This document shows positions 2,741 to 48,018 of a stretch of DNA of 64,000 bases, piece by piece. The stretch is from Clostridia bacterium (GTDB taxonomy: Bacteria > Bacillota > Clostridia > DUPQ01), in NCBI GenBank assembly GCA_046484975.1, contig JAWOHX010000011.1, forward strand, positions 3,611-67,610, given 5' to 3'. The notes under the pieces were generated by a model. That model made no database searches, had not been told where the DNA came from, and saw nothing but the letters and a program-made list of their open reading frames with translations. Position 1 is the stretch's first letter, and every line of letters starts with the position of its first letter. A program made the translations under genes and the position numbers.

Positions 2741-3391
2741 ATGACTGAGAACAAGAGAATATCCGATGCCGTTATAAAAAGACTGCCAAGATATTACAGA
2801 TATCTTACAGAGCTGAAACAAGGCCATTTGACAAGGATCTCTTCCAAGGAACTCAGCGAGAAGATGTCTCTGACCGCTTCCCAGATACGCCAGGACCTGA
2901 GCTGCTTCGGGGGGTTCGGACAACAGGGATACGGCTACAACATCGACCATCTCCATGAGGAGATCGGCAAGATCCTCGGGGTGGACCAGGGATTCGCCAT
3001 GATCGTCGTCGGGGCGGGCAACATGGGTCAAGCCCTTGCCAATTACCCGAATTTCAACAAAAGGGGATTCCGGGTCATTGGCATCTTCGACATCAATCCC
3101 AAGCTCATCGGCACCGGAATCAAAGGTGTTGAGGTCATGCATGTGGATGTCATGGAAGAGTTCATCAGAAATCACCATGTCGACATTGCAGTCCTGACCC
3201 TGCCCAGCGCTGAGACCAGGATGTACGCGGAGAAGATGATCCGCTGGGGCATCAAGGGACTATGGAATTATTCTGCCATGGATCTTCAGGTGAATCCCGA
3301 AAAGACCATCGTGGAGAATGTGCATCTCAGTGACAGCCTGATGGTACTGGGGTATAAAATACACAATAACAGACTAGGGGGACCACAATGA
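2741..3391 (+). CDS. rex: redox-sensing transcriptional repressor Rex
   Basis: N-terminal winged helix (KRLPRYYRYL; IRQDLSCFGGFGQQGYGYNIDHL) and a Rossmann NADH-binding fold (IVVGAGNMGQALANY). Length and motifs match Rex/YdiH. Start taken at MTENKR. Confidence 0.9.
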   Translation: MTENKRISDAVIKRLPRYYRYLTELKQGHLTRISSKELSEKMSLTASQIRQDLSCFGGFGQQGYGYNIDHLHEEIGKILGVDQGFAMIVVGAGNMGQALANYPNFNKRGFRVIGIFDINPKLIGTGIKGVEVMHVDVMEEFIRNHHVDIAVLTLPSAETRMYAEKMIRWGIKGLWNYSAMDLQVNPEKTIVENVHLSDSLMVLGYKIHNNRLGGPQ

Positions 3392-5457
3392 AAAACTTTA
3401 CAAGCGAGAATATCAGGAACATTTGCCTTTTATCCCATGGATCGGGAGGAAAGACGACCCTTGCGGAGGCGATGCTGTTCAATGCCAAGGCCATTGACCG
3501 CCTGGGAAGCATCAATGCGGGGAACACCACTTGTGATTTTGATTCAGAGGAAATAAAAAGGAACATTACCATAAACGTGTCCGTCGCGCCGTTTGAATGG
3601 AAAAACACGAAAATCAACATCATCGACACCCCCGGATATTTCGATTTTGTCGGGGAAGTGAAAAGCGGGGTCAAAGTGGCGGAGACGGCGCTGATCCTGG
3701 TCCCTGCGAAGAACGGGGTGGAGGTCGGCACAGAAAAGTCATGGGGCTATGCCAATGAGAACAACATGGGCAGGATGTTCTTCATCAGCAAGATGGACGA
3801 GGAGAACGCCGACTATTTCAAAACATACGGGGAACTGGTGGAACAATTCGGGAAGAATGTCATTGCCTTTGAATTCCCCATCCTTGAGAACGGGAAGCTG
3901 ACGGGACTGGTGGATGTCATCCACAAGACAGCAAGGAAGTACGATGGAGGAAAGCTCATCGAAATCCCCATTCCTGCCGACCTGGAGAAGAAAGCGGACG
4001 AGCTGAGGGAACCGTTGATGGAAGCGGTGGCCGAGACGGACGAGGCACTGATGGAAAAATATTTCGACGGAGAGGCATTCACCCCCGAAGAGATCAAGAA
4101 AGGCCTGCTGGAAGGCATCAGGAACGCAGACATCATTCCGGTCTTCTGCGGCTCATCCCTCACCAATGCCGGAATCCAGCTGCTGATGGACGCCATCGTG
4201 GAATACACCCCCGCACCGACGGCAGGAAAGCCAATGCCGGCCAAAAACATCAAAACCGGACAGGACATGGAGATCAAACCCCTGCCCGGCGAGAAACTGA
4301 GCGCCCTCGTGTTCAAGACCATTGCCGATCCTTTCGTCGGCAGGATTTCCATCATCAGGGTGTATTCCGGGGAACTGAAAGTGGACACCCAGGTCTACAA
4401 CAGCAGGACGAGGAAGCTTGAGAAAATCACCAACCTTTTCCTTCTGCGGGGGAAAAAACAGGAGACCACCGACAAGATACCCGCCGGTGACATCGGCGCC
4501 ACGGCGAAGCTGGTGGACACCAACACCAATGATACCCTGTCAGACCCGTTAAACCCGGTGGAGCTGGAAAAAATCGTGTTCCCTGCCCCTTCCATATCCC
4601 TTGCCGTAGAGCCCCTGACCAAAGGGGACGAGGAAAAAATAAGCTCCGGTCTGAACAAACTGAAGGACGAGGATCCCACATTCACCCTCGTAATCAACCC
4701 TGAGACCCATCAGGCATTGATTTCGGGAATCGGGGAACAGCACATTGAGGTGCTCACCAGCAAGCTCAAGGAGAAATTCGGCACATCCGTGAAACTCACC
4801 GACCCGTTGGTGCCTTACAGGGAGACCATCAAGAAAAGTCTCCGTGTGGAAGGAAAACACAAGAAACAATCCGGCGGACACGGCCAGTACGGCCATGTGT
4901 GGATGGAATTCGAACCCGGGCAAACGGATGACCTGACCTTCGAGGAGAAGATATTCGGTGGTTCGGTGCCCAAGCAGTATATCCCCGCCGTGGAAAAAGG
5001 ACTGCGTGAATGCATCACGAAAGGTGTCCTGGCAGGCTACCCCATGGTGAGGCTCAAGGCGGTCCTGGTGGACGGCTCCTACCATGCTGTGGATTCCTCC
5101 GAGATGGCCTTCAAACTGGCTGCCACCGTGGCATATAAAAAACTCGTGGACGCACAGCCGGTCCTGCTGGAGCCCATCATGCACTGTGAGGTGCTGATTC
5201 CCGAAGACTACATGGGAGACATCATGGGGGACCTGAACAAAAGAAGGGGCAGGATACTCGGGATGACCCCCATGGAAAACAGCTACCAGCAAGTGGCCGC
5301 CGAAGTCCCCATGGTTGAAATGTTCAAGTACGCCAATGATCTCAGATCCATGACCCAGGCAAGGGGAACCTTCACCATCAGGCTGGCCCGATACGACGAG
5401 GTACCCTTCCAGTTGAGCGCAAAGATCATAGAGGAAGCCAAAAAAGAGCATGAATGA
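3388..5457 (+). CDS. elongation factor G paralogue (EF-G-like translational GTPase with degenerate switch II/G4)
   Basis: 689 aa with the five-domain EF-G architecture. P-loop SHGSGGKTT. Switch II is DTPGY, where the canonical form is DTPGH. G4 is SKMD, where the canonical form is NKMD. The domain IV/V region matches fusA closely. Its ATG overlaps the rex stop in an ATGA. Confidence 0.85.
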   Translation: MKNFTSENIRNICLLSHGSGGKTTLAEAMLFNAKAIDRLGSINAGNTTCDFDSEEIKRNITINVSVAPFEWKNTKINIIDTPGYFDFVGEVKSGVKVAETALILVPAKNGVEVGTEKSWGYANENNMGRMFFISKMDEENADYFKTYGELVEQFGKNVIAFEFPILENGKLTGLVDVIHKTARKYDGGKLIEIPIPADLEKKADELREPLMEAVAETDEALMEKYFDGEAFTPEEIKKGLLEGIRNADIIPVFCGSSLTNAGIQLLMDAIVEYTPAPTAGKPMPAKNIKTGQDMEIKPLPGEKLSALVFKTIADPFVGRISIIRVYSGELKVDTQVYNSRTRKLEKITNLFLLRGKKQETTDKIPAGDIGATAKLVDTNTNDTLSDPLNPVELEKIVFPAPSISLAVEPLTKGDEEKISSGLNKLKDEDPTFTLVINPETHQALISGIGEQHIEVLTSKLKEKFGTSVKLTDPLVPYRETIKKSLRVEGKHKKQSGGHGQYGHVWMEFEPGQTDDLTFEEKIFGGSVPKQYIPAVEKGLRECITKGVLAGYPMVRLKAVLVDGSYHAVDSSEMAFKLAATVAYKKLVDAQPVLLEPIMHCEVLIPEDYMGDIMGDLNKRRGRILGMTPMENSYQQVAAEVPMVEMFKYANDLRSMTQARGTFTIRLARYDEVPFQLSAKIIEEAKKEHE

Positions 5458-6985: not shown

Positions 6986-8338
6986 ATGGCAAAAACCAGC
7001 ACCCGATTCATCTGTCAGGAATGTGGATATGAGACCATGAAATGGATGGGAAAATGCCCGTCCTGTTTCCAATGGGACACCTTAAGCCAGACCGTGACTG
7101 AAAAGGCATCGGGTACAACAGAGGTGCGAAAAACAGTCCTCACGGGCCTTTCAGGCCTTTCTTCCGAATCTTCCGACAGGATCGACACGGGCATCGGGGA
7201 GATGAACCGTGTGCTGGGCGGAGGCGTGGTCAGGGGATCCATCATTCTGGTGGGAGGAGATCCCGGCATCGGCAAATCCACCATCCTCCTTCAGCTATGC
7301 AAAAGCGTGGAGGTGGGGACCGAGGTCTTGTATTTTTCCGGGGAGGAAAGCATCAGCCAGATCGGCATGCGGGCGAAGAGACTGGGGGTCGTGAAAGAAA
7401 ACATCCTGTTTGCCTCGGAGACGGATGTGGAAAGCATCTGCGACTGCATGGAGGATAAAAAACCCGAGATCGTTGTCATTGATTCCATCCAGACAGTCTC
7501 CAGCAGCCAGGTGCCCTCGGTCCCGGGCAGTGTGACCCAGATCCGCAATGCCGCCCAGGCTTTTATCCAGACAGCCAAGAAAATCAACACTTCCGTGTTC
7601 CTGGTGGGCCATGTCACCAAGGATGGCACACTGGCCGGCCCCAGGATCCTGGAACACATGGTGGACACGGTCCTGTATTTCGAGGGAGACAGAAGCAGCA
7701 GTTTCAGAATCCTGCGGGCGGTGAAGAACCGGTTCGGATCCACCAACGAGATTGGGGTGTTTGAGATGCTGGAGGAAGGATTGGCTGAGGTGGCCAACCC
7801 CTCCGCGCTGTTCCTGTCCGGGAAAAGCCGCCATGCGGCGGGATCCTGCGTGATACCCGTGATGGAGGGGACCCGGCCCATGCTGTGCGAGATACAGGCC
7901 CTGGTGAGCGCGAGTCCCTTCGGGATGCCCAGGAGGATGTCCACAGGAGTGGACAACAACCGGGTCATCATGCTGGCAGCGGTCCTGGAGAAGATTCTGG
8001 GGCTGAAGCTTGCCAATTGCGATGCCTATGTCAACGCCGCAGGCGGCCTGAAGGTTTCCGAACCGGCTTGTGACCTGGCGGTGATCAGTGCCATCGGATC
8101 CAGTTTCAAGAACCTCCCCGTCGCCGACGACCTGGTGGTCATGGGGGAGGTGGGGTTGACGGGTGAGATCCGGGGGGTCAGCAACATCGACAAGAGGGTC
8201 CGGGAAGCGGAGAAGCTGGGGTACAAGGTTGCCGTCATTCCGTCGGCCAATCTGGCCCAGGCCAGAAAGGCTTCCAAGACCCTTGTCATCCATGCCGTGG
8301 ACCATATAAAAAGAGCATTTGAGGTCCTTTTCCAGTGA
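6986..8338 (+). CDS. radA: DNA repair protein RadA/Sms
   Basis: C4 zinc finger (CQECGYE...CPSC). RecA-like Walker A (GGDPGIGKST). KNRFG motif. C-terminal Lon-like protease domain. Confidence 0.95.
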   Translation: MAKTSTRFICQECGYETMKWMGKCPSCFQWDTLSQTVTEKASGTTEVRKTVLTGLSGLSSESSDRIDTGIGEMNRVLGGGVVRGSIILVGGDPGIGKSTILLQLCKSVEVGTEVLYFSGEESISQIGMRAKRLGVVKENILFASETDVESICDCMEDKKPEIVVIDSIQTVSSSQVPSVPGSVTQIRNAAQAFIQTAKKINTSVFLVGHVTKDGTLAGPRILEHMVDTVLYFEGDRSSSFRILRAVKNRFGSTNEIGVFEMLEEGLAEVANPSALFLSGKSRHAAGSCVIPVMEGTRPMLCEIQALVSASPFGMPRRMSTGVDNNRVIMLAAVLEKILGLKLANCDAYVNAAGGLKVSEPACDLAVISAIGSSFKNLPVADDLVVMGEVGLTGEIRGVSNIDKRVREAEKLGYKVAVIPSANLAQARKASKTLVIHAVDHIKRAFEVLFQ

Positions 8339-22251: not shown

Positions 22252-23748
22252 ATGAACAACAGGAAAATATGGAAAGCACTGCCGATAATCATGGCACTGA
22301 TGTTGGTCACTGTGCTCATCCTGGGATCGACCCGGGTCTTAGGGACCCGGGACAGCGGTAGAATCCAGGCCTATGTGGACCTGGTGACCCAGAACCATTA
22401 TGAATACCTTCCGGTGGAAAACACCTTCCCCAATATGATCAAAGGAGCCTTCGACAACACCGACCGTTATACCTATTTCCAGGAAGTCCGGACATACAGG
22501 AGTGAGATGGAGACCTATATCGATGCCACATACGTTGGAATCGGAATCTCCATGTCCCAGCTGGAGGAAGGGGCCCTGGTGGAGAACGTCTTTATCCATT
22601 CCCCTGCATACCATGCGGGCCTGAAGCCCGGGGACATCCTGGTGGAGGCCAACGGCATTTCCTTCCGGGGAAGGACCCTGGAATACATTGCCTCAAAGGT
22701 CAGGGGACCTGAAGACACGGTGGTGAGAATCGGGATCCTGAGAGACGGGGGGGGAGACATCATCCGCATGGACATCGTCCGAAAAAGCATCACCATTACC
22801 ACGGTGAACATGTTCATGGCCGGTGATACCGCATATGTCAGCATCTCCTCCTTCACCAACAACACCCCTGAGGAATTTGTGAAGGCTTTGTTGAAGATTG
22901 ACGACGCAAAGATCATCAATATTGTCATCGACATCCGTGACAACGGGGGAGGTTCGGTGTACGGGGCCCTGAATGTGGCCAACCAGCTGCTTTCCAATGA
23001 GATCATCACCAAGATCTATTATAAATTCCCTGGCTACCTGAACCTGGCTTACCTGGCCGATGAGAAGGAGATCCCCTACAATGTGGTCCTGCTCATGAAC
23101 AAGAAATCCGCCAGCGCATCGGAGATCCTGGCAGGCGCCCTGAAGGACAACGGACGGGCAGTGCTGATGGGGGAGACCAGCTTCGGAAAAAGCCTTGTAC
23201 AGTCCTCCTATGAGCTCATGACACCGGAGGTGTTCGAGCGGTATGCCAACCTGTACGGGAGCAGGAGCATGCTGGTATTAAACAACATGCTTGCCATGAA
23301 CGGAATCACCCTGCAGGATCATGAAATCCTGGGTGCCGCGAAGATCACCATCGGGGAATATGTCACACCAAAGGAAACCAGGATCAACTTGACCGGCATC
23401 CGCCCCCATATCCTTGTTCCCTATGACGGCCCCACTGTCTTAAGAGCCGGCATCGGCAAAGCCCTTCAGTCCCTGGATGAATACGGTCCGGGGATGCGGG
23501 ATGAAGAGATCAAAAAGGCGAAAGCCATATTGCAGGCCCTGGGCTACGATTCGGGAGCGCCCGGTGACCATTATGACGGGAAAATGGAGGAAGCCGTCAG
23601 GCTTTTCCGAAAAGACGAGGGGCTACCTTCCGGAGAGGGCCTCGACCATGCCGTGCAGGCCGCACTCAACCTGAGGATTTTACCTGCCATCATCGGCACG
23701 GACATCCAGCTGGAAAAAGCATTCCAGCAGGTGGGGGAGGTGGAATGA
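22252..23748 (+). CDS. S41 family C-terminal processing peptidase with PDZ and C-terminal peptidoglycan-binding domain
   Basis: PDZ (GLKPGDILVEANG). Catalytic Ser in KKSASASEILAGAL and Lys in GETSFGKS. C-terminal PG_binding_1 (LGYDSGAPGDHYDGKMEEAVRLFRKDEGL). N-terminal TM anchor. Confidence 0.85.
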   Translation: MNNRKIWKALPIIMALMLVTVLILGSTRVLGTRDSGRIQAYVDLVTQNHYEYLPVENTFPNMIKGAFDNTDRYTYFQEVRTYRSEMETYIDATYVGIGISMSQLEEGALVENVFIHSPAYHAGLKPGDILVEANGISFRGRTLEYIASKVRGPEDTVVRIGILRDGGGDIIRMDIVRKSITITTVNMFMAGDTAYVSISSFTNNTPEEFVKALLKIDDAKIINIVIDIRDNGGGSVYGALNVANQLLSNEIITKIYYKFPGYLNLAYLADEKEIPYNVVLLMNKKSASASEILAGALKDNGRAVLMGETSFGKSLVQSSYELMTPEVFERYANLYGSRSMLVLNNMLAMNGITLQDHEILGAAKITIGEYVTPKETRINLTGIRPHILVPYDGPTVLRAGIGKALQSLDEYGPGMRDEEIKKAKAILQALGYDSGAPGDHYDGKMEEAVRLFRKDEGLPSGEGLDHAVQAALNLRILPAIIGTDIQLEKAFQQVGEVE

Positions 23749-23749
23749 C

Positions 23750-25186
23750 ATGAAAAAAACATGGAAGGTTCTTAGTCTGCTCCTCATCGCCTCGGTCCTC
23801 TTTTCCAGTGTGTTGTCTGCTTCCGTCATCCGTGTGGATGAGGGATACCTCAACCAGCTTTATGATTTCATCAGCAGCATGTACAACGAGGACATCGACC
23901 GGGAATCGGTGCTGGGATCCTCCTTCAACGGGCTCTTCACCGGCACCTCCCCATACTCCTGTTTTGAAAGTGTCTCCCTCCGGGAGGAAGGAACCCACGG
24001 GATCGGCGCAGCCCTGGAGAAGGTGAGACAGGGCTTCATGGTGTCTGCAGTCCACCCGGGATCCAATGCATACAATGCGGGGCTCAAATCCGGCGACATC
24101 ATCTTCAATGCCAACAGGAAAAGCCTCGCCCTCATGAACGTGAAGGATTTCAACCATTATCTGGCCGGTGAGGCAAGGGGCATCCAACTGGACGTCCTGG
24201 ATCCCGGGACAGGAGAGACAAGAACCTTGCTCCTGGACGCCGAGAACATCCAGTACGGGGCGGTGGAGTTTTTCATCCATCAGGAAACAGGCTTCATCCG
24301 CATCCATCATTACGGGCCAAAGACCGGTGAGACAGTGTCCCGGGCGCTTTCAATCTTCTCCGCCAGCCGGGTAAGGAATGTCATCCTTGATCTGCGGGAT
24401 TCCATATCCATGAACGTGGAGGCGGCCGCTGCAGTGGCTGACCTGCTTCTTCCCTACGGAAGGATCGCCCAGGTCAGGGACAAGGCTTTCCACGCTTCCT
24501 TCAAACAAGTCAGCTTCACATTCCATCTGGCTGTCAACGGGAATACCGCGGGGGCGGGGGAAATCATCGCCAGGGCGGTGGAGGACAAAGGCACCGGCAT
24601 GGTTTATGGAAGCCCCACGGCAGGCAACAGCCTGTACGTGAAAACCTATCCGGTGCTTTCCGATGACGCATACATGAAATATGCCGTGCAGGCCGGAAGA
24701 ACGGACATCCCCGGCATCATGAACCATATCCGCCTGAACGGCATCGTGCCGGGGCCTTTCGAGACCACCGGCTACCTGCATATGGTGGAATCCCATGTCA
24801 AGGATGCAAGGGGCCTGGAGATCAGCAGGGCAAACAACATCATCCCTGGTATCGCAACCCGGGAGGATGCCGTGGCCTATCTTGATGCGGACAACAGGAA
24901 CAGGATATGGATCCGGAAGGATTATGAGCCAGGCGAGCTCAGCTATGATGTGTTCCTGGCAAAAAAAATATTGTCGGAGGCAGGATATTTCAAGGGGGAA
25001 CTGAACGTATCCTATGATGCGAATGCGGTTGGGGCGGTGAACGCCTTCAAGAAAGACATGGGACTGGAGCAAAACGGCATCCTGGACAAGGATACCCAGA
25101 AACTGCTGAACTTCACCATGCTTGCCCCGAAGATATTTGCAGACCCTTGCATCCTTGAGATCCTGGAATATATTAAAGGGGAATGA
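23750..25186 (+). CDS. S41-peptidase-like pseudoenzyme (catalytic Ser->Gly, Lys->Asn) with PDZ and peptidoglycan-binding tail
   Basis: Same architecture as the upstream gene: signal peptide, PDZ (GLKSGDIIFNANR) and a C-terminal PG_binding_1. The catalytic positions read GNTAGAGEI (no Ser) and GSPTAGNS (no Lys). Confidence 0.7.
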   Translation: MKKTWKVLSLLLIASVLFSSVLSASVIRVDEGYLNQLYDFISSMYNEDIDRESVLGSSFNGLFTGTSPYSCFESVSLREEGTHGIGAALEKVRQGFMVSAVHPGSNAYNAGLKSGDIIFNANRKSLALMNVKDFNHYLAGEARGIQLDVLDPGTGETRTLLLDAENIQYGAVEFFIHQETGFIRIHHYGPKTGETVSRALSIFSASRVRNVILDLRDSISMNVEAAAAVADLLLPYGRIAQVRDKAFHASFKQVSFTFHLAVNGNTAGAGEIIARAVEDKGTGMVYGSPTAGNSLYVKTYPVLSDDAYMKYAVQAGRTDIPGIMNHIRLNGIVPGPFETTGYLHMVESHVKDARGLEISRANNIIPGIATREDAVAYLDADNRNRIWIRKDYEPGELSYDVFLAKKILSEAGYFKGELNVSYDANAVGAVNAFKKDMGLEQNGILDKDTQKLLNFTMLAPKIFADPCILEILEYIKGE

Positions 25187-31034: not shown

Positions 31035-31832
31035 ATGACAGACGAAGACAGAAAAAAAGCACTTGATGCAATGGGCCTATCGGAAGAGGCTTCCCGGAAG
31101 GACATAGAGTCCAGGTATGTGGCGTTTTTGAAGAGGCGAAAAAACAGGGAAGAACTGGATTATGACGGCATCACGAAGGCATACAACCAGCTCATGGGGA
31201 TTGAAGAGGAACACAGGCCGCAAAGTTGGCTGCGGAAAAAGTACAAGGCATTTATGTTCAACCATTTCGGAATGGCCGTGGTAGTGGTCATTGCCCTTGG
31301 CATCCTGTTTTCCGTGGTTTACCCGGCCCTTACGAAGAAAACCCCTGACCTTTCCATATCCTTCGTGGGAAATTTCAACATCTTCAACCAGGCCCTGGAA
31401 GAAAAGATCCGGCTGGAGATGCCGCATCTGGAATACCTCATAGTGGAGACCATTTATGTCAGTGAGAACAGTGAGAGCGGGGAGTTCGACGAAGCGGGGC
31501 GCATCCAGTTGGCCGGGCTGATCCTGACCGGGGAGACCGGCGTCATCGTGGCCAGTGACACAGCCTACCAGTTCCTGCTGGCCAACGACGCCCTGGCACC
31601 TTTGGAGGAGACCATGGGAGAGGTGCTGGCAGGAATCAACCCTGACAAATATATCTATGCCATAGACCCGGTGGACAGGGAAAAGAAGGTATTCGGGGTC
31701 AATGTGTCAGAAAACGGCCTGTTTTACAAATCAATATCGGGGTCCGTCGCCAGGATCCTTTGCCTGACCAGGGATTTCGCCAATCCGGAGAATGTCCTGG
31801 AGGCCATAAAAATCATATTGGAGGAGGAATGA
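31035..31832 (+). CDS. J-domain-like single-pass membrane protein (paralogue A)
   Basis: N-terminal helical J-like segment (ALDAMGLSEEASRKDIESRYVAFLKRR) lacking HPD, one TM helix (GMAVVVVIALGILFSVVY) and a C-terminal domain of about 170 aa. Confidence 0.5.
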   Translation: MTDEDRKKALDAMGLSEEASRKDIESRYVAFLKRRKNREELDYDGITKAYNQLMGIEEEHRPQSWLRKKYKAFMFNHFGMAVVVVIALGILFSVVYPALTKKTPDLSISFVGNFNIFNQALEEKIRLEMPHLEYLIVETIYVSENSESGEFDEAGRIQLAGLILTGETGVIVASDTAYQFLLANDALAPLEETMGEVLAGINPDKYIYAIDPVDREKKVFGVNVSENGLFYKSISGSVARILCLTRDFANPENVLEAIKIILEEE

Positions 31833-31836
31833 ACCC

Positions 31837-32157
31837 ATGACAGAATACGATATTTCGGTCCAGGGAGACCATGTTCAACTGAAGGGGGAGCTGGATGTCA
31901 GCAATGTGGCTTCCTTCAAAGGGCGTTTGTACGATATTATAGACCAGGCAGAAAAAAACCTGACACTTGACATGGAAGAACTGCGCTATATAGACAGCGC
32001 CGGGCTGGGGATCCTCGTGGGAGCATATAAGAGGCTGAAACAGAAGCAGCTGGGAATGACCATCATCCATGCCATGGACAACATCCGTAAATTGTTCTCC
32101 GTAACGAAACTGGACACCATGATCCCCATCGGGGGAGCAAGGGAGGAAAACATATGA
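31837..32157 (+). CDS. anti-sigma factor antagonist (STAS domain, SpoIIAA/RsbV-like)
   Basis: 106 aa. Conserved phosphorylatable Ser in the DSAGLG motif (YIDSAGLGILVG). Confidence 0.85.
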   Translation: MTEYDISVQGDHVQLKGELDVSNVASFKGRLYDIIDQAEKNLTLDMEELRYIDSAGLGILVGAYKRLKQKQLGMTIIHAMDNIRKLFSVTKLDTMIPIGGAREENI

Positions 32158-32507
32158 TCTGCGACAACAACAAGATTGAAATCGCCATGCCCTGCAAAGC
32201 GGAATACGTCGGGATCCTGAGGTTGGCTTCCGCCGGTGCTGCCAACGAGGCGGGGTTTGACATCGAAACCATCGATGATGTCAAAATACTGGTCTCGGAA
32301 ATTTTCAACAGTGTCTTCAATGCCGGGATTCCTTCCTTTAAGACGGACATCCACATGGAAAAAGGAAAGCTTTTCATTGACTTCGAAGTATGCGAGGGCA
32401 ACGACATCCTGGCAGGAGCCAACGACATGACGCTTCCCATCCTGGAGGCCCTTGCAAGGGAAGTGACCGTCCATGGCAGGAATAAAATATCGCTGGTGAT
32501 CGTATAA
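32154..32507 (+). CDS. short anti-sigma-factor-like protein with degenerate HATPase fold (no G1/G2 boxes)
   Basis: The N-terminal half aligns with the SpoIIAB/RsbW pattern (IAMPCKAEYVGILRLASAGAA...VKILVSEIFNSVFNAG), but the N-box His and the DxGxG ATP-lid motifs are absent. Confidence 0.55.
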   Translation: MICDNNKIEIAMPCKAEYVGILRLASAGAANEAGFDIETIDDVKILVSEIFNSVFNAGIPSFKTDIHMEKGKLFIDFEVCEGNDILAGANDMTLPILEALAREVTVHGRNKISLVIV

Positions 32508-33232
32508 TGGAATCAGAAAACAGAATTTTTCAATTGTACAGGGATACGGGCGACATTGAGGTGCGCAACGAGATTGTCGAGAGATATTATTACCTCGCTG
32601 AGACCCTGGCGAAAAAATTCAGGAACAGGGGCGTGGAATATGACGACCTCATACAGATCGGGTCCCTTGCGCTGATCAAAGCGGCGGAGCGATTCGACCA
32701 TGGGAAAGGCATCAAGTTCATCACCTTTGCCACCCCCACCATCATCGGTGAAATTAAAAAATATTTCAGGGACAAGGCTTCGTCCGTCCGGATGCCCAGG
32801 AAATACTACGAGGCCTATCCCCTGGTCAAGAACGCCCTGGACACATTGATTCATGAACAGGGGCAGTACCCCACTGCGGATGAAATCGCCGGCGTGACCC
32901 ATCTGAAGGCTGAGGAAGTGCTTGAAATATTGGAAATGGCAAAAAGCGGGAGCATCCTTTCCCTGGACGAGGAATATGAAGAGGAAGGGCTCACCCGGAT
33001 GGACAGCCTGAGCCAGACGGAGATGGGGTTTGAGCAGATCGAGAACATTGAGGTCTACAGGATGGCACTGGACATGCTGGAAGAGGAGGAACGGGAAATC
33101 ATCCTCATGCGGCTTGAAAAAGGGTTCACCCAGAAAAAGATTGCCGAGGTGACGGGGTATTCCCAGATGTACATCTCCCGGCTGGAGAAGAAAATCTACA
33201 GGAAACTGAAAGGATTGATCCAGACAGAATGA
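32507..33232 (+). CDS. RNA polymerase sigma factor, sigma-70 group 3 (SigB/F/G-like)
   Basis: Region 2 (DLIQIGSLALIKAAERFDHGKGIKFITFATPTIIGEIKKYFRD) and region 4 HTH (TQKKIAEVTGYSQMYISRLEKK). Confidence 0.9.
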   Translation: MESENRIFQLYRDTGDIEVRNEIVERYYYLAETLAKKFRNRGVEYDDLIQIGSLALIKAAERFDHGKGIKFITFATPTIIGEIKKYFRDKASSVRMPRKYYEAYPLVKNALDTLIHEQGQYPTADEIAGVTHLKAEEVLEILEMAKSGSILSLDEEYEEEGLTRMDSLSQTEMGFEQIENIEVYRMALDMLEEEEREIILMRLEKGFTQKKIAEVTGYSQMYISRLEKKIYRKLKGLIQTE

Positions 33233-33642
33233 TTGAAGAAAAGGACTATTCATTCCCTTCGGACACAAGCAGGATCCCCTCCTACGTGCAAGACATCCTG
33301 ATCGACTTGGGCAAGCATTCCCTCTGGTTCACGGGAGAAGCATTGTACAATGTCCGTGTCGTCCTCAGCGAGCTCATCGCCAACGCGGTGATCCACGGCA
33401 ACAGGAACAATCCGAGGAAGACTGTGGACATCCATATGGCTCTCGGGGAAAGGCGTCTGGAATTCCATGTCTTTGACAAGGGAAAAGGCTTTGAAATGAA
33501 AAAAATACCAAGGCAGAGACTCACCCGTGAAAGCTGCAGGGGCATCCTGATATGCACGAACATGTGCGACAACCTGGAGACTTGTTTCACCAGGGGGAAA
33601 GGCCATACCGTGTCCGTCATTTTTGAAAAGAAAAAGGATTGA
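33229..33642 (+). CDS. anti-sigma factor serine kinase (HATPase_c, SpoIIAB/RsbW-like)
   Basis: N-box VLSELIANAVIHG and G1 box VFDKGKGF. 137 aa. The ATGA overlaps the sigma gene stop. Confidence 0.8.
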   Translation: MIEEKDYSFPSDTSRIPSYVQDILIDLGKHSLWFTGEALYNVRVVLSELIANAVIHGNRNNPRKTVDIHMALGERRLEFHVFDKGKGFEMKKIPRQRLTRESCRGILICTNMCDNLETCFTRGKGHTVSVIFEKKKD

Positions 33643-33739
33643 ATGCTTGACACCGGCTCGTTTCCTATGATATCTTATATTGTGCTTAAGGAAGGTTCTT
33701 TTTTTTTGTATAAAAGAATCATTATCGGAGGGAAAAGCA

Positions 33740-45948: not shown

Positions 45949-48018
45949 ATGCCAAGAGAATTCACATTGGATAAAACGAGAAACGTCGGAATCATGGCTC
46001 ATATTGATGCCGGAAAGACGACGACAACAGAGCGCATTCTCTATTATTCCGGACGCCTCCATAAAATGGGGGAGACCCATGATGGATCTGCCGTCATGGA
46101 CTGGATGGACCAGGAACAGGAGAGGGGAATCACCATCACCTCTGCGGCTACAACCGCCCAGTGGAACAAACACCGCATCAATGTCATAGACACACCCGGG
46201 CACGTTGACTTCACGGTGGAGGTGGAACGCTCATTGAGGGTCCTGGATGGGGCCGTTACTTTGTTCTGCGCGAAAGGCGGGGTGGAGCCCCAGACAGAAA
46301 CGGTATGGAGGCAGGCGGATAAATATCATGTCCCAAGGCTCGCCTTTATCAACAAAATGGATATTGTGGGAGCGGATTTCTTTCATTGTGTGGACATGAT
46401 GAAGGAGCGGCTGGGTGCCAAGGCCATCCCCATCCAGCTGCCCATCGGGGCGGAGGATGCCTTCAAGGGGATTGTGGACCTGGTCAGCTTCAAGGCCTAC
46501 TATTACATGGATGACCTCGGCCAGGAGATCGTGGAGCAGGAGATTCCCGCAGAAATGCTCCAGAAAAGCCTGGAATACAGGAACAAGCTGATGGAAGTGG
46601 TGGCGGAAGAGGATGAGGAGCTCCTGATGAAATACCTCGAAGGCGAGGAAATGACGCAGGATGAGATCAAAAAGGGATTGAGGAAAGCCACCATCAAGGT
46701 TGACATCATCCCTGTCACATGCGGGTCCGCTTACAAGAACAAGGGCGTGCAGAAACTGCTGGATGCCATTGTGGACTATATGCCCTCGCCTCTGGACGTG
46801 CCTGCCATCAAGGGGGTCGGAGTCAGGGACAAGGAAACTGAAATCATCCGACATTCAGATGACAACGAGCCTTTTTCTGCCCTGGCATTCAAAATCATGA
46901 CGGATCCTTATGTGGGGAAATTATGTTTTTTCCGGGTTTACTCAGGAACACTGGACTCCGGGTCATATATTCTCAACAGCACAAAGAACAACAAGGAGCG
47001 CATCGGCAGGATCCTCCAGATGCATGCCAATGCCAGGGAAGAGATCAAGAAGGTGTATTCCGGAGACATTGCCGCCGCGGTGGGATTGAAAAACACCACC
47101 ACGGGAGACACCCTTTGCGATGAGAAACATCCGGTCATACTGGAGGCCATGACCTTTCCGGAACCTGTCATATCCATCGCCATCGAGCCAAAGACCAAGG
47201 CAGGGCAGGAAAAAATGGCGGTGGCCCTGCAGAAACTGGCGGAGGAAGACCCGACCTTCAGAACCTATACGGACAAGGATACGGGGCAGACCATCATCCA
47301 GGGCATGGGGGAACTCCACCTTGACATCCTGGTCACCCGCATGTTCCGGGAATTCAGCGTGGAGGCCAATGTGGGCAAACCGCAAGTGGCTTACAAGGAG
47401 ACCATCAGGAAAAAAGCCACTGCGGAAGGGCGTTTCATCCGGCAGTCCGGCGGCAGAGGCCAATACGGACATTGCCTGATCGAAATCGAACCAAGGGCAC
47501 ACGGGGAAGGATATGAGTTCGTGGACAAGATCGTCGGTGGCAGCATCCCAAGGGAATACATCCCTGCGGTGGATGCTGGAATCAGGGATGCCATGAACAA
47601 CGGTATCCTTGCCGGGTATCCTGTCCTTGACTTCCGTGTCACCCTGTTGGATGGGTCCTATCATGATGTGGATTCCTCTGAGATGGCATTCAAAATCGCC
47701 GGGTCAATGGCATTTAAAGAAGCATGCAGGAACGCGGACCCCGCCATCCTTGAACCCATCATGAGGGTGGATGTGGTGGTGCCGGAAGACTACATGGGGG
47801 ATGTCATCGGAGACATCAATGCGCGAAGAGGCCGGATAGAAGGCATGGAACCCAGAAACAACATGCAGATCATCCGATCCCTGGTGCCTTTGTCCGAGAT
47901 GTTCGGATATGCCACCCAGCTTCGGTCCAGGACCCAGGGTCGCGGAACCTTCACCATGCAGTTTGCCCATTATGAGGAAGTTCCCAAGGCAATCGCAGAC
48001 AAGATTTGCGAAATGTAG
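45949..48018 (+). CDS. fusA: elongation factor G (canonical)
   Basis: [26 protein letters not shown] and NKMD are all intact. 689 aa. Confidence 0.98.

Follow-up and report, generated by a model that had tools for sequence, protein, structure and literature searches.

Partner switching of the RsbW/SpoIIAB type is, in its textbook form, the work of a single protein that is both anti-sigma factor and kinase, which raises the question of how these two jobs are distributed in a locus that encodes two proteins of this type, one on either side of a sigma factor gene. The locus lies in the window analyzed here, a 64,000-nucleotide (nt) stretch of the Clostridia bacterium contig JAWOHX010000011.1, where four genes on the + strand form one module. 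They encode a STAS-domain antagonist, a 117-residue RsbW-type protein (SHORT), a group-3 sigma factor, and a 137-residue SpoIIAB-like GHKL protein (KIN). A split of sigma sequestration and antagonist phosphorylation between two proteins, as raised in the original prediction made from the DNA letters and a list of open reading frames (ORFs), fits the sequence evidence. The four genes of the module are as follows.

31837–32157, + strand: STAS anti-sigma-factor antagonist, 106 residues (PF01740, TIGR00377)
32154–32507, + strand: SHORT, RsbW-type protein without the lid, 117 residues (partial match to NF003144; fold of the AlphaFold model, AF2)
32507–33232, + strand: group-3 sigma factor of the SigB/SigF/SigG family, 241 residues (Sigma70 regions 2, 3, and 4; TIGR02980)
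33229–33642, + strand: KIN, SpoIIAB-like GHKL protein, 137 residues (HATPase_c_2; SpoIIAB structures)

Gene order and conservation of the module

The genes are tightly packed, with overlaps of ATGA at 32154–32157 between STAS and SHORT, TAATG at 32505–32509 between SHORT and sigma, and ATGA at 33229–33232 between sigma and KIN. ORF and profile checks reproduced exactly the coordinates, ORF sizes, and gene order given in the original prediction. Its count of four overlapping junctions was one too many: all three internal junctions do overlap, four genes have only three junctions, and the STAS gene is separated by a 4-nt gap from the gene upstream of it, which encodes a 265-residue protein.

To place this arrangement in context, the ORFs of 95 sequences (94 loci plus the window) were annotated with hidden Markov models (HMMs) built from the four proteins; 80 metagenome loci had been found through a close 12-sequence alignment, which biases the sample toward relatives resembling Clostridium thermocellum. 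About 90 related loci show the order STAS-SHORT-sigma-KIN, which is seen in every case where the contig has sufficient length, and the four-gene arrangement is thus not due to chance. The original prediction had left the conservation of the module to be checked and had assumed a more unusual arrangement than this; the module is widespread, it is found in C. thermocellum, and a split of functions is already known in mycobacteria. The gap between SHORT and sigma is short throughout (median 2 nt, 85 loci), and that between sigma and KIN has a median of 155 nt (65 loci). The clade of the window has no such spacer, and here KIN overlaps the sigma gene by ATGA.

An RsbW-type protein that lacks the ATP lid

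Profile searches recognize SHORT in part. The match to NF003144 (RsbW) covers only positions 4–75 of 161 (E = 7e-13; 48.3 bits, cut-off 145), and SHORT scores below the Pfam gathering threshold for HATPase_c_2 (16 bits versus 27.4), which the C. thermocellum ortholog passes with 35.8 bits. Homologs of the same length are encoded on two metagenome contigs (L001 and L002; 70–76% identity), and further homologs in six species-representative genomes, all of them metagenome-assembled genomes (MAGs; 43–45% identity). An exhaustive HMMER search of the family returned 415 cluster representatives (clustered at 50% identity) with E < 1e-3; among the best 150 of these 415, 104 are 105–140 residues long and have no DxGxG motif, and these served as the conservation set.

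The AF2 model of SHORT obtained with this alignment is confident, with a predicted local distance difference test (pLDDT) score of 95 and a predicted template-modeling (pTM) score of 0.86, and shows the topology β1-α1-α2-β2-β3-α3-β4-β5. The top Foldseek matches are RsbW (6m36/6m37; E = 1e-8; template-modeling (TM) scores of 0.72–0.78 when normalized to the query and 0.75–0.88 when normalized to the target), followed by UsfX (8ih8/8jzt) and SpoIIAB. SHORT therefore has the whole GHKL core of five strands and three helices, and the view that it keeps the N-terminal helix only has to be given up. The original prediction had allowed that the 117-residue ORF might prove to be unconserved, to lack a HATPase-like fold, or to belong to an unrelated family; it is conserved in the two contigs, the six MAGs, and more than 100 cluster representatives, its model has the fold of RsbW, UsfX, and SpoIIAB, and its profile match, though partial, is to RsbW.

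What SHORT does not retain is the machinery for binding ATP. The degenerate N-box SEIFNSVFNAG is present as described, at residues 48–58. DxGxG is absent from the window copy and its closest relatives, and few members of the family have GxG. In a profile–profile alignment, Ser53, Val79, and Glu81 of SHORT occupy the positions of Asn52, Asp83, and Gly85 of KIN, and these positions are variable. The G2 motif (Arg104-Gly105 in KIN) has no counterpart, and the segment forming the ATP lid is absent. The alignments thus bear out the claim that SHORT is without the ATP motifs and lid, the losses being Asn of the N-box, both G1 residues (Asp and Gly), G2, and the lid. By these criteria SHORT is a lid-less RsbW-type pseudokinase, predicted to be kinase-dead and to have lost ATP binding.

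Conservation is found elsewhere in the protein. SHORT aligns without gaps to residues 8–49 of Bacillus subtilis RsbW, and in the conservation set Arg23 is present in 104 of 104 homologs, Asp42 in 102, Lys44 (Lys or Arg) in 102, Ser48 in 81, and Glu49 in 103; Pro13, Leu24, Asp42, and Glu49 are each at least 90% conserved. In the RsbW–RsbV complex, Arg23, Asp42, Lys44/Ser48, and Glu49 of RsbW hydrogen-bond with Asp23, Arg84/Arg87, Tyr53, and Ser56 of RsbV (PMC7340262). Because the top conserved residues of SHORT are the RsbV-contact residues of RsbW, selection on SHORT is centered on the antagonist-docking surface. The possibility that SHORT is a pseudogene or a decayed remnant was considered and is ruled out by its constant length, the invariant residues in more than 100 homologs, and the confident fold. 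The nonsynonymous divergence (dN) of SHORT from the L001 and L002 copies is 0.16–0.20; synonymous divergence (dS) is saturated, so that no dN/dS ratio is given.

The STAS antagonist and the sigma factor

The STAS protein belongs to its family by both PF01740 (E = 8e-18) and TIGR00377 (71.8 bits; cut-off 53.45), and its best PDB sequence matches include SpoIIAA. The motif YIDS54AGLG contains the predicted phospho-acceptor, Ser54 (DS(T/A)GLG motif), which aligns with Ser56 of RsbV and Ser58 of SpoIIAA. Asp20 and Tyr51 likewise align with Asp23 and Tyr53 of B. subtilis RsbV (6m36_B), and the Asp, Tyr, and Ser positions are conserved in 73 orthologs. Lys85 is also retained at an RsbV partner position that faces RsbW.

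In the sigma factor, Sigma70 regions 2, 3, and 4 are all found. Its score against TIGR02980 (SigBFG), 214.6 bits, is just below the cut-off of 234.35, and it scores 169.5 bits against the SigB equivalog TIGR02941 (cut-off 315) and 153 bits against the SigF equivalog (cut-off 321). No other gene of the module is as well conserved (median pairwise identity 0.67).

A SpoIIAB-like GHKL protein encoded after the sigma gene

KIN passes the Pfam threshold for HATPase_c_2 (58.1 bits) and matches HATPase_c with 27 bits. The best named profile is that of SpoIIAB, TIGR01925, which it matches from model position 30 onward with 46.9 bits (equivalog cut-off, 135). The N-box (Glu48, Asn52, His56, Gly57, and Asn58), G1 (Asp83 and Gly85), and G2 (Arg104 and Gly105) residues are all in place and, together with Glu101, show little or no variation in alignments of 15 and of 67 sequences. 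The motifs ELIANAVIHG and DKGKGF, described in the original prediction as those of an intact kinase, do reside in KIN, 3′ of sigma. The second G1 glycine is variable in the clade of the window; the active kinase RsbW of B. subtilis is likewise without it (DEGDS).

The AlphaFold model of KIN, made with 67 homologs, has a pLDDT of 85 and a topology like that of SHORT with the addition of a lid of lower confidence (residues 84–100). Its top Foldseek matches are the SpoIIAB structures 1l0o, 1til, and 1th8, at 22–25% identity and TM scores of 0.76–0.85 (query-normalized) and 0.77–0.88 (target-normalized); RsbW comes next. In the profile–profile alignment the KIN residue at the position of SHORT Arg23 is Gln21, and this position is variable. 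KIN could thus plausibly be an active serine kinase, one predicted to be without the conserved arginine for stable docking.

Compared with each other, the SHORT and KIN families are homologous over 119 columns (hhalign probability 94%) at 8% identity, and with so little identity left the duplication that separates them is old. Each has, as far as motifs can tell, kept what the other lost: the docking residues in SHORT and the ATP motifs in KIN. The covariation of evolutionary rates does not discriminate between the partners, as mirror-tree correlations of pairwise identity with sigma are similar for all three (Spearman 0.72–0.76).

A SigB-type promoter motif precedes KIN in most loci

Between sigma and KIN, the coding strand of 45 of 53 unique spacers contains the motif tGTTTAy-N14-GGGTAw. 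With GTTT-N15-17-GGGTA as the strict pattern counted, shuffled spacers yielded 0.23 matching sequences on average, and the reverse strand yielded 0. The motif is found in the spacers of L009 and of L015–L093 as well as in that of C. thermocellum:

L014 (C. thermocellum), 7252–7277: SigB-type motif, approximately 45 nt before the start codon of KIN

It matches the B. subtilis SigB consensus GTTTAA-N14-GGGTAT (PMC9847131) and resembles the mycobacterial SigF motif GTTT-N17-GGGTAA (PMC7693655). The simplest reading of this match implies that the sigma factor of the module would recognize the promoter in the spacer. The window copy, with its overlapping genes, is a compact, promoter-less form of the module.

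Autoregulation through a SigB-type promoter 5′ of STAS was also considered and is rejected, as the strict pattern occurs there in 0 of 74 loci and a relaxed pattern gives one weak match among the 74. Five loci also share a conserved match to GTTT-N17-GGGTA where the sigma gene has its 5′ end (L004, 422; L005, 6389; L006, 3654; L007, 6389; L008, 6368). It falls inside the conserved LFEEY..TGN codons and is discounted as a promoter, being most likely a by-product of protein conservation. In L009, a second SigB-type motif, GTTTGACCTGTGCAGGAAGCGGGTA, lies at 4895–4919 between the STAS and SHORT genes, from where, in that lineage, SHORT and sigma could be expressed in a sigma-dependent manner.

Proposed mechanism and alternatives

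In our estimation there is a little better than an even chance that SHORT is the sigma-sequestering, STAS-binding anti-sigma factor, that KIN is the STAS kinase, and that a PP2C phosphatase from an unlinked gene resets STAS. In this mechanism, two diverged paralogs within a SigB-type partner-switching module would share out the tasks that a canonical RsbW or SpoIIAB performs by itself. SHORT is proposed as the anti-sigma factor on the basis of position, its gene being directly upstream of and coupled to that for sigma; it would act stoichiometrically, be translationally coupled to sigma, and hold sigma until unphosphorylated STAS takes the place of sigma through the surface formed by Arg23, Asp42, Lys44, Ser48, and Glu49. 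Phosphorylation of STAS at Ser54 by KIN would inactivate the antagonist and allow SHORT to recapture sigma, and the PP2C phosphatase encoded elsewhere would return STAS to its active state. Because a SigB-type promoter precedes KIN in most loci, active sigma would in most relatives induce, from the promoter of KIN itself, the very kinase that shuts it off, in a negative feedback. In the clade of the window, KIN would instead be made as part of the operon, to which the ATGA overlap joins it without a promoter of its own.

Several observations weigh against this division of labor. No PP2C phosphatase was found among the approximately 25 of approximately 55 window ORFs scanned. The SigB-type motif has 0 occurrences in the 64 kb of the window, where about 1 is expected by chance, and in the clade of the window the 3′ portion of the sigma gene is likewise free of it. 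In KIN of the window, Cys replaces the first glycine of G2 (ESCRG), its clade has a lid about 10 residues shorter than that of the C. thermocellum clade, and no other member of the module evolves as fast as KIN (median identity 0.39). KIN is also more SpoIIAB-like than SHORT, SpoIIAB being sigma binder and kinase in one, and it has the β1-α1 elements that mediate dimerization in RsbW; for these reasons KIN could bind sigma as well. It is conceivable, if unlikely, that KIN is a true dual-function anti-sigma kinase and SHORT an accessory modulator, either a decoy titrating unphosphorylated STAS or a threshold tuner that binds the anti-sigma factor in the manner of RsbW3, the M. smegmatis RsbW homolog that antagonizes by binding RsbW1 (PMC7693655). 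The structures nearest to KIN are SpoIIAB chains from complexes with sigma-F and with SpoIIAA, its fold is complete with N-terminal strand and helix included, and the conserved surface of SHORT, as the STAS-contact surface, would suit a pure STAS binder equally well. Against this stands the absence from KIN of a conserved equivalent of SHORT Arg23, which we take to correspond to Arg20 of SpoIIAB, a residue reportedly needed to bind both sigma-F and SpoIIAA. Moreover, it is SHORT rather than KIN that holds the rsbW position, tightly coupled to sigma family-wide; with a SigB-type promoter before KIN in most loci, an anti-sigma factor made after activation would be a poor sole inhibitor; and actinobacterial relatives have the STAS, short, and sigma genes with no adjacent KIN.

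Less probable again is an obligate pseudokinase–kinase heterodimer of SHORT and KIN, joined through β1-α1 into an asymmetric anti-sigma complex with one docking and one catalytic subunit. RsbW and SpoIIAB dimerize through β1 and α1 (PMC7340262), and the models of SHORT and KIN retain both. The two genes co-occur even where the order is altered, as in L010, which reads STAS-SHORT-KIN. The SpoIIAB dimer is also said to bind a single sigma-F asymmetrically, which would suit such a complex. However, the use of separate promoters by the two genes in most loci argues against a fixed 1:1 stoichiometry, the actinobacterial relatives again do without an adjacent KIN, and M. smegmatis RsbW1 did not copurify with RsbW2 (PMC7693655). 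Slightly more doubtful than the plain heterodimer is a version in which KIN, induced by sigma, would turn sequestering SHORT homodimers into obligate heterodimers that reset the switch, with the upstream membrane protein as the input; if true, this would be a design undescribed for partner-switching systems. We give little credence to a reading of KIN as an RsbT-like switch kinase in an upstream input layer, where it might activate a phosphatase or phosphorylate a different STAS protein, with SHORT as a kinase-independent anti-sigma factor like UsfX. KIN does resemble RsbT-type kinases in size and in its HATPase_c_2 domain, and the UsfX and RsbW1 systems do run on kinase-independent anti-sigma factors, but the module has no gene for an RsbR/RsbS-type STAS protein or a PP2C phosphatase, the only STAS protein of the operon keeps the phospho-serine motif, and the best profile and structure matches of KIN are to SpoIIAB.

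Comparison with characterized partner-switching systems

The closest experimental precedent for a split between SHORT and KIN is the SigF system of M. smegmatis, in which two RsbW-type paralogs divide the work. RsbW1 is the anti-SigF factor and binds both SigF and unphosphorylated RsfB, whereas RsbW2 does not bind to SigF; it carries the motifs N, G1, and G2 and alone phosphorylates RsfB, at Ser63 (PMC7693655). As in the present module, the mycobacterial anti-sigma gene is directly upstream of the sigma gene, and SHORT finds one of its best structural matches in UsfX of the M. tuberculosis UsfX–SigF pair (8jzt, 8ih8). In mycobacteria, however, the genes are scattered, with rsfB-rsbW2 in a separate operon near genes for a histidine kinase and a PP2C phosphatase, whereas all four genes share a single operon here; UsfX has 141–145 residues and SHORT 117, with the ATP lid deleted; and the SigB-type promoter at the kinase gene is a feature of the clostridial relatives. 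The sequence similarity of SHORT to UsfX is marginal (E = 0.06), and for this reason kinase function was probably lost separately in the clostridial and mycobacterial lineages.

The order of antagonist, RsbW-like protein, and sigma is shared with rsbV-rsbW-sigB of Clostridioides difficile and with rsbV-rsbW-sigB-rsbX of B. subtilis, where a fourth, feedback gene follows as well. SHORT is colinear with RsbW over the gap-free segment and keeps its RsbV contacts, and STAS keeps the phospho-serine; the differences are that B. subtilis RsbW is a 160-residue active kinase with an ATP lid, whereas SHORT is without the ATP-binding determinants, that the gene after sigB is rsbX, for a PP2C phosphatase, and not one for a GHKL kinase, and that the SigB-type promoter of the relatives studied here precedes the kinase gene rather than the rsbV counterpart. 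Compared with spoIIAA-spoIIAB-sigF of Bacillus, KIN has SpoIIAB as its nearest profile and structures, and SpoIIAA is found among the PDB matches of STAS. SpoIIAB, however, is encoded before sigF and is anti-sigma factor and kinase at once, whereas KIN is encoded after sigma, scores far below the equivalog cut-off, and has no conserved docking arginine.

The components themselves (STAS antagonist, RsbW/SpoIIAB GHKL proteins, and SigB-type sigma) and the functional split in M. smegmatis are already known. We found no description of a clostridial version of the split module in the searchable literature. The features that appear to be undescribed are a single operon encoding both halves, a pseudokinase with a deleted lid, a SpoIIAB-like kinase gene placed after the sigma gene in the position of rsbX, and a SigB-type promoter dedicated to that kinase. 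The distribution of the module suggests that a large group of Clostridia, including the biotechnology organism C. thermocellum, may have split the anti-sigma and kinase functions between a lid-less pseudokinase and a separate kinase that sigma itself appears to induce. If confirmed, the module would provide a natural separation-of-function system in which the effects of sequestration and of phosphorylation on SigB dynamics can be told apart, would mend annotations in which both proteins are named "serine/threonine-protein kinase RsbW," and would make GTTTAy-N14-GGGTAw a simple motif for mapping the SigB regulon in these anaerobes.

Distribution and variant loci

The module or its kinase gene is found in Acetivibrio (Clostridium) thermocellus, A. 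cellulolyticus, Clostridium thermosuccinogenes, Anaerobacterium, and many MAGs from digesters. The C. thermocellum module lies at about 494.6–496.7 kb of CP013828.1. In C. thermocellum AD2, NCBI gives the RsbW kinase name to both GHKL genes, and SigB of C. thermocellum was listed as "not reported" in a 2020 review (PMC7522486). Contigs resembling C. thermocellum often stop about 1.5–2.5 kb 3′ of the SHORT gene, and in L014 the kinase gene is followed by no long ORFs (beyond 7755); both would fit a repeated element after the module, for example a ribosomal RNA operon.

The actinobacterial locus L095, from an Ilumatobacteraceae MAG, encodes within 15–1961 a STAS protein, a lid-less RsbW-like protein of 129 residues, and sigma, with no adjacent KIN. 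Two genes with SpoIIE/PP2C domains follow 2 kb downstream, at 3316–4585. A GTTT-N16-GGGTA motif is present at position 1530 of this locus, 5′ of an unannotated 119-residue ORF.

In the sister clade of the window, the kinase gene is followed on its 3′ side by a gene for desulfoferrodoxin (superoxide reductase), which the window does not have:

L004, 1545–1928: desulfoferrodoxin
L005, approximately 7517–7894: desulfoferrodoxin
L007, 7517–7894: desulfoferrodoxin
L008, 7499–7876: desulfoferrodoxin

In a further locus, L006, a 270-residue in-frame ORF at 4346–5158 combines HATPase_c_2 and desulfoferrodoxin domains and is either a true fusion or an artifact of assembly or frameshift. The desulfoferrodoxin neighbor hints at an oxidative-stress role for the module in the sister loci. 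SigB of C. difficile has such a role.

Genomic neighborhood of the module in the window

The module is bordered by the following features.

31035–31832, + strand: single-pass membrane protein, 265 residues, family unassigned; gene directly 5′ of STAS
33647–33676, + strand: sigma-70-like promoter, TTGACA-18-TATCTT with TG, for rpmG-secE-nusG (consensus match)

From its sequence, the 265-residue protein has a helical N terminus, a single transmembrane segment, and, at the C terminus, a domain of about 165 residues; it has no match in Pfam, NCBIfam, or the PDB. A homolog is encoded directly 5′ of STAS in 46 of the 63 loci with sufficient upstream sequence and is missing from the other 17, the C. 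thermocellum group among them. It is possible that this protein is an optional fifth member of the module, an input or sensor component, or a mere syntenic neighbor.

The other neighbors are housekeeping genes. Further upstream lie greA and lysS, the latter identified by its ORF translation and by the tRNA-synthetase domains predicted in its ortholog from a related locus. Downstream are rpmG, secE, nusG, rplK, rplA, rplJ, rplL, rpoB, and rpoC, named from their translations and not from profiles. On its 3′ side the module is delimited by the promoter of rpmG-secE-nusG. From 29478 (upstream of lysS) to this promoter at 33647, the + strand has no sigma-70-like site with at least 10 of 12 matches, and on these grounds the whole module is probably cotranscribed as part of the lysS transcript.

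Two other features of the window, away from the module, were observed. Tandem genes for S41 C-terminal processing peptidases occupy 22252–23748 and 23750–25186, the second of which encodes a protein with a weak match (28.9 bits; cut-off 236.5) to the N-terminal part of the model for SleB, a spore-cortex-lytic enzyme. The window also contains two EF-G-like genes, one at 3388–5457, whose product has all EF-G domains, and one at 45949–48018, in the str-operon position before tuf.

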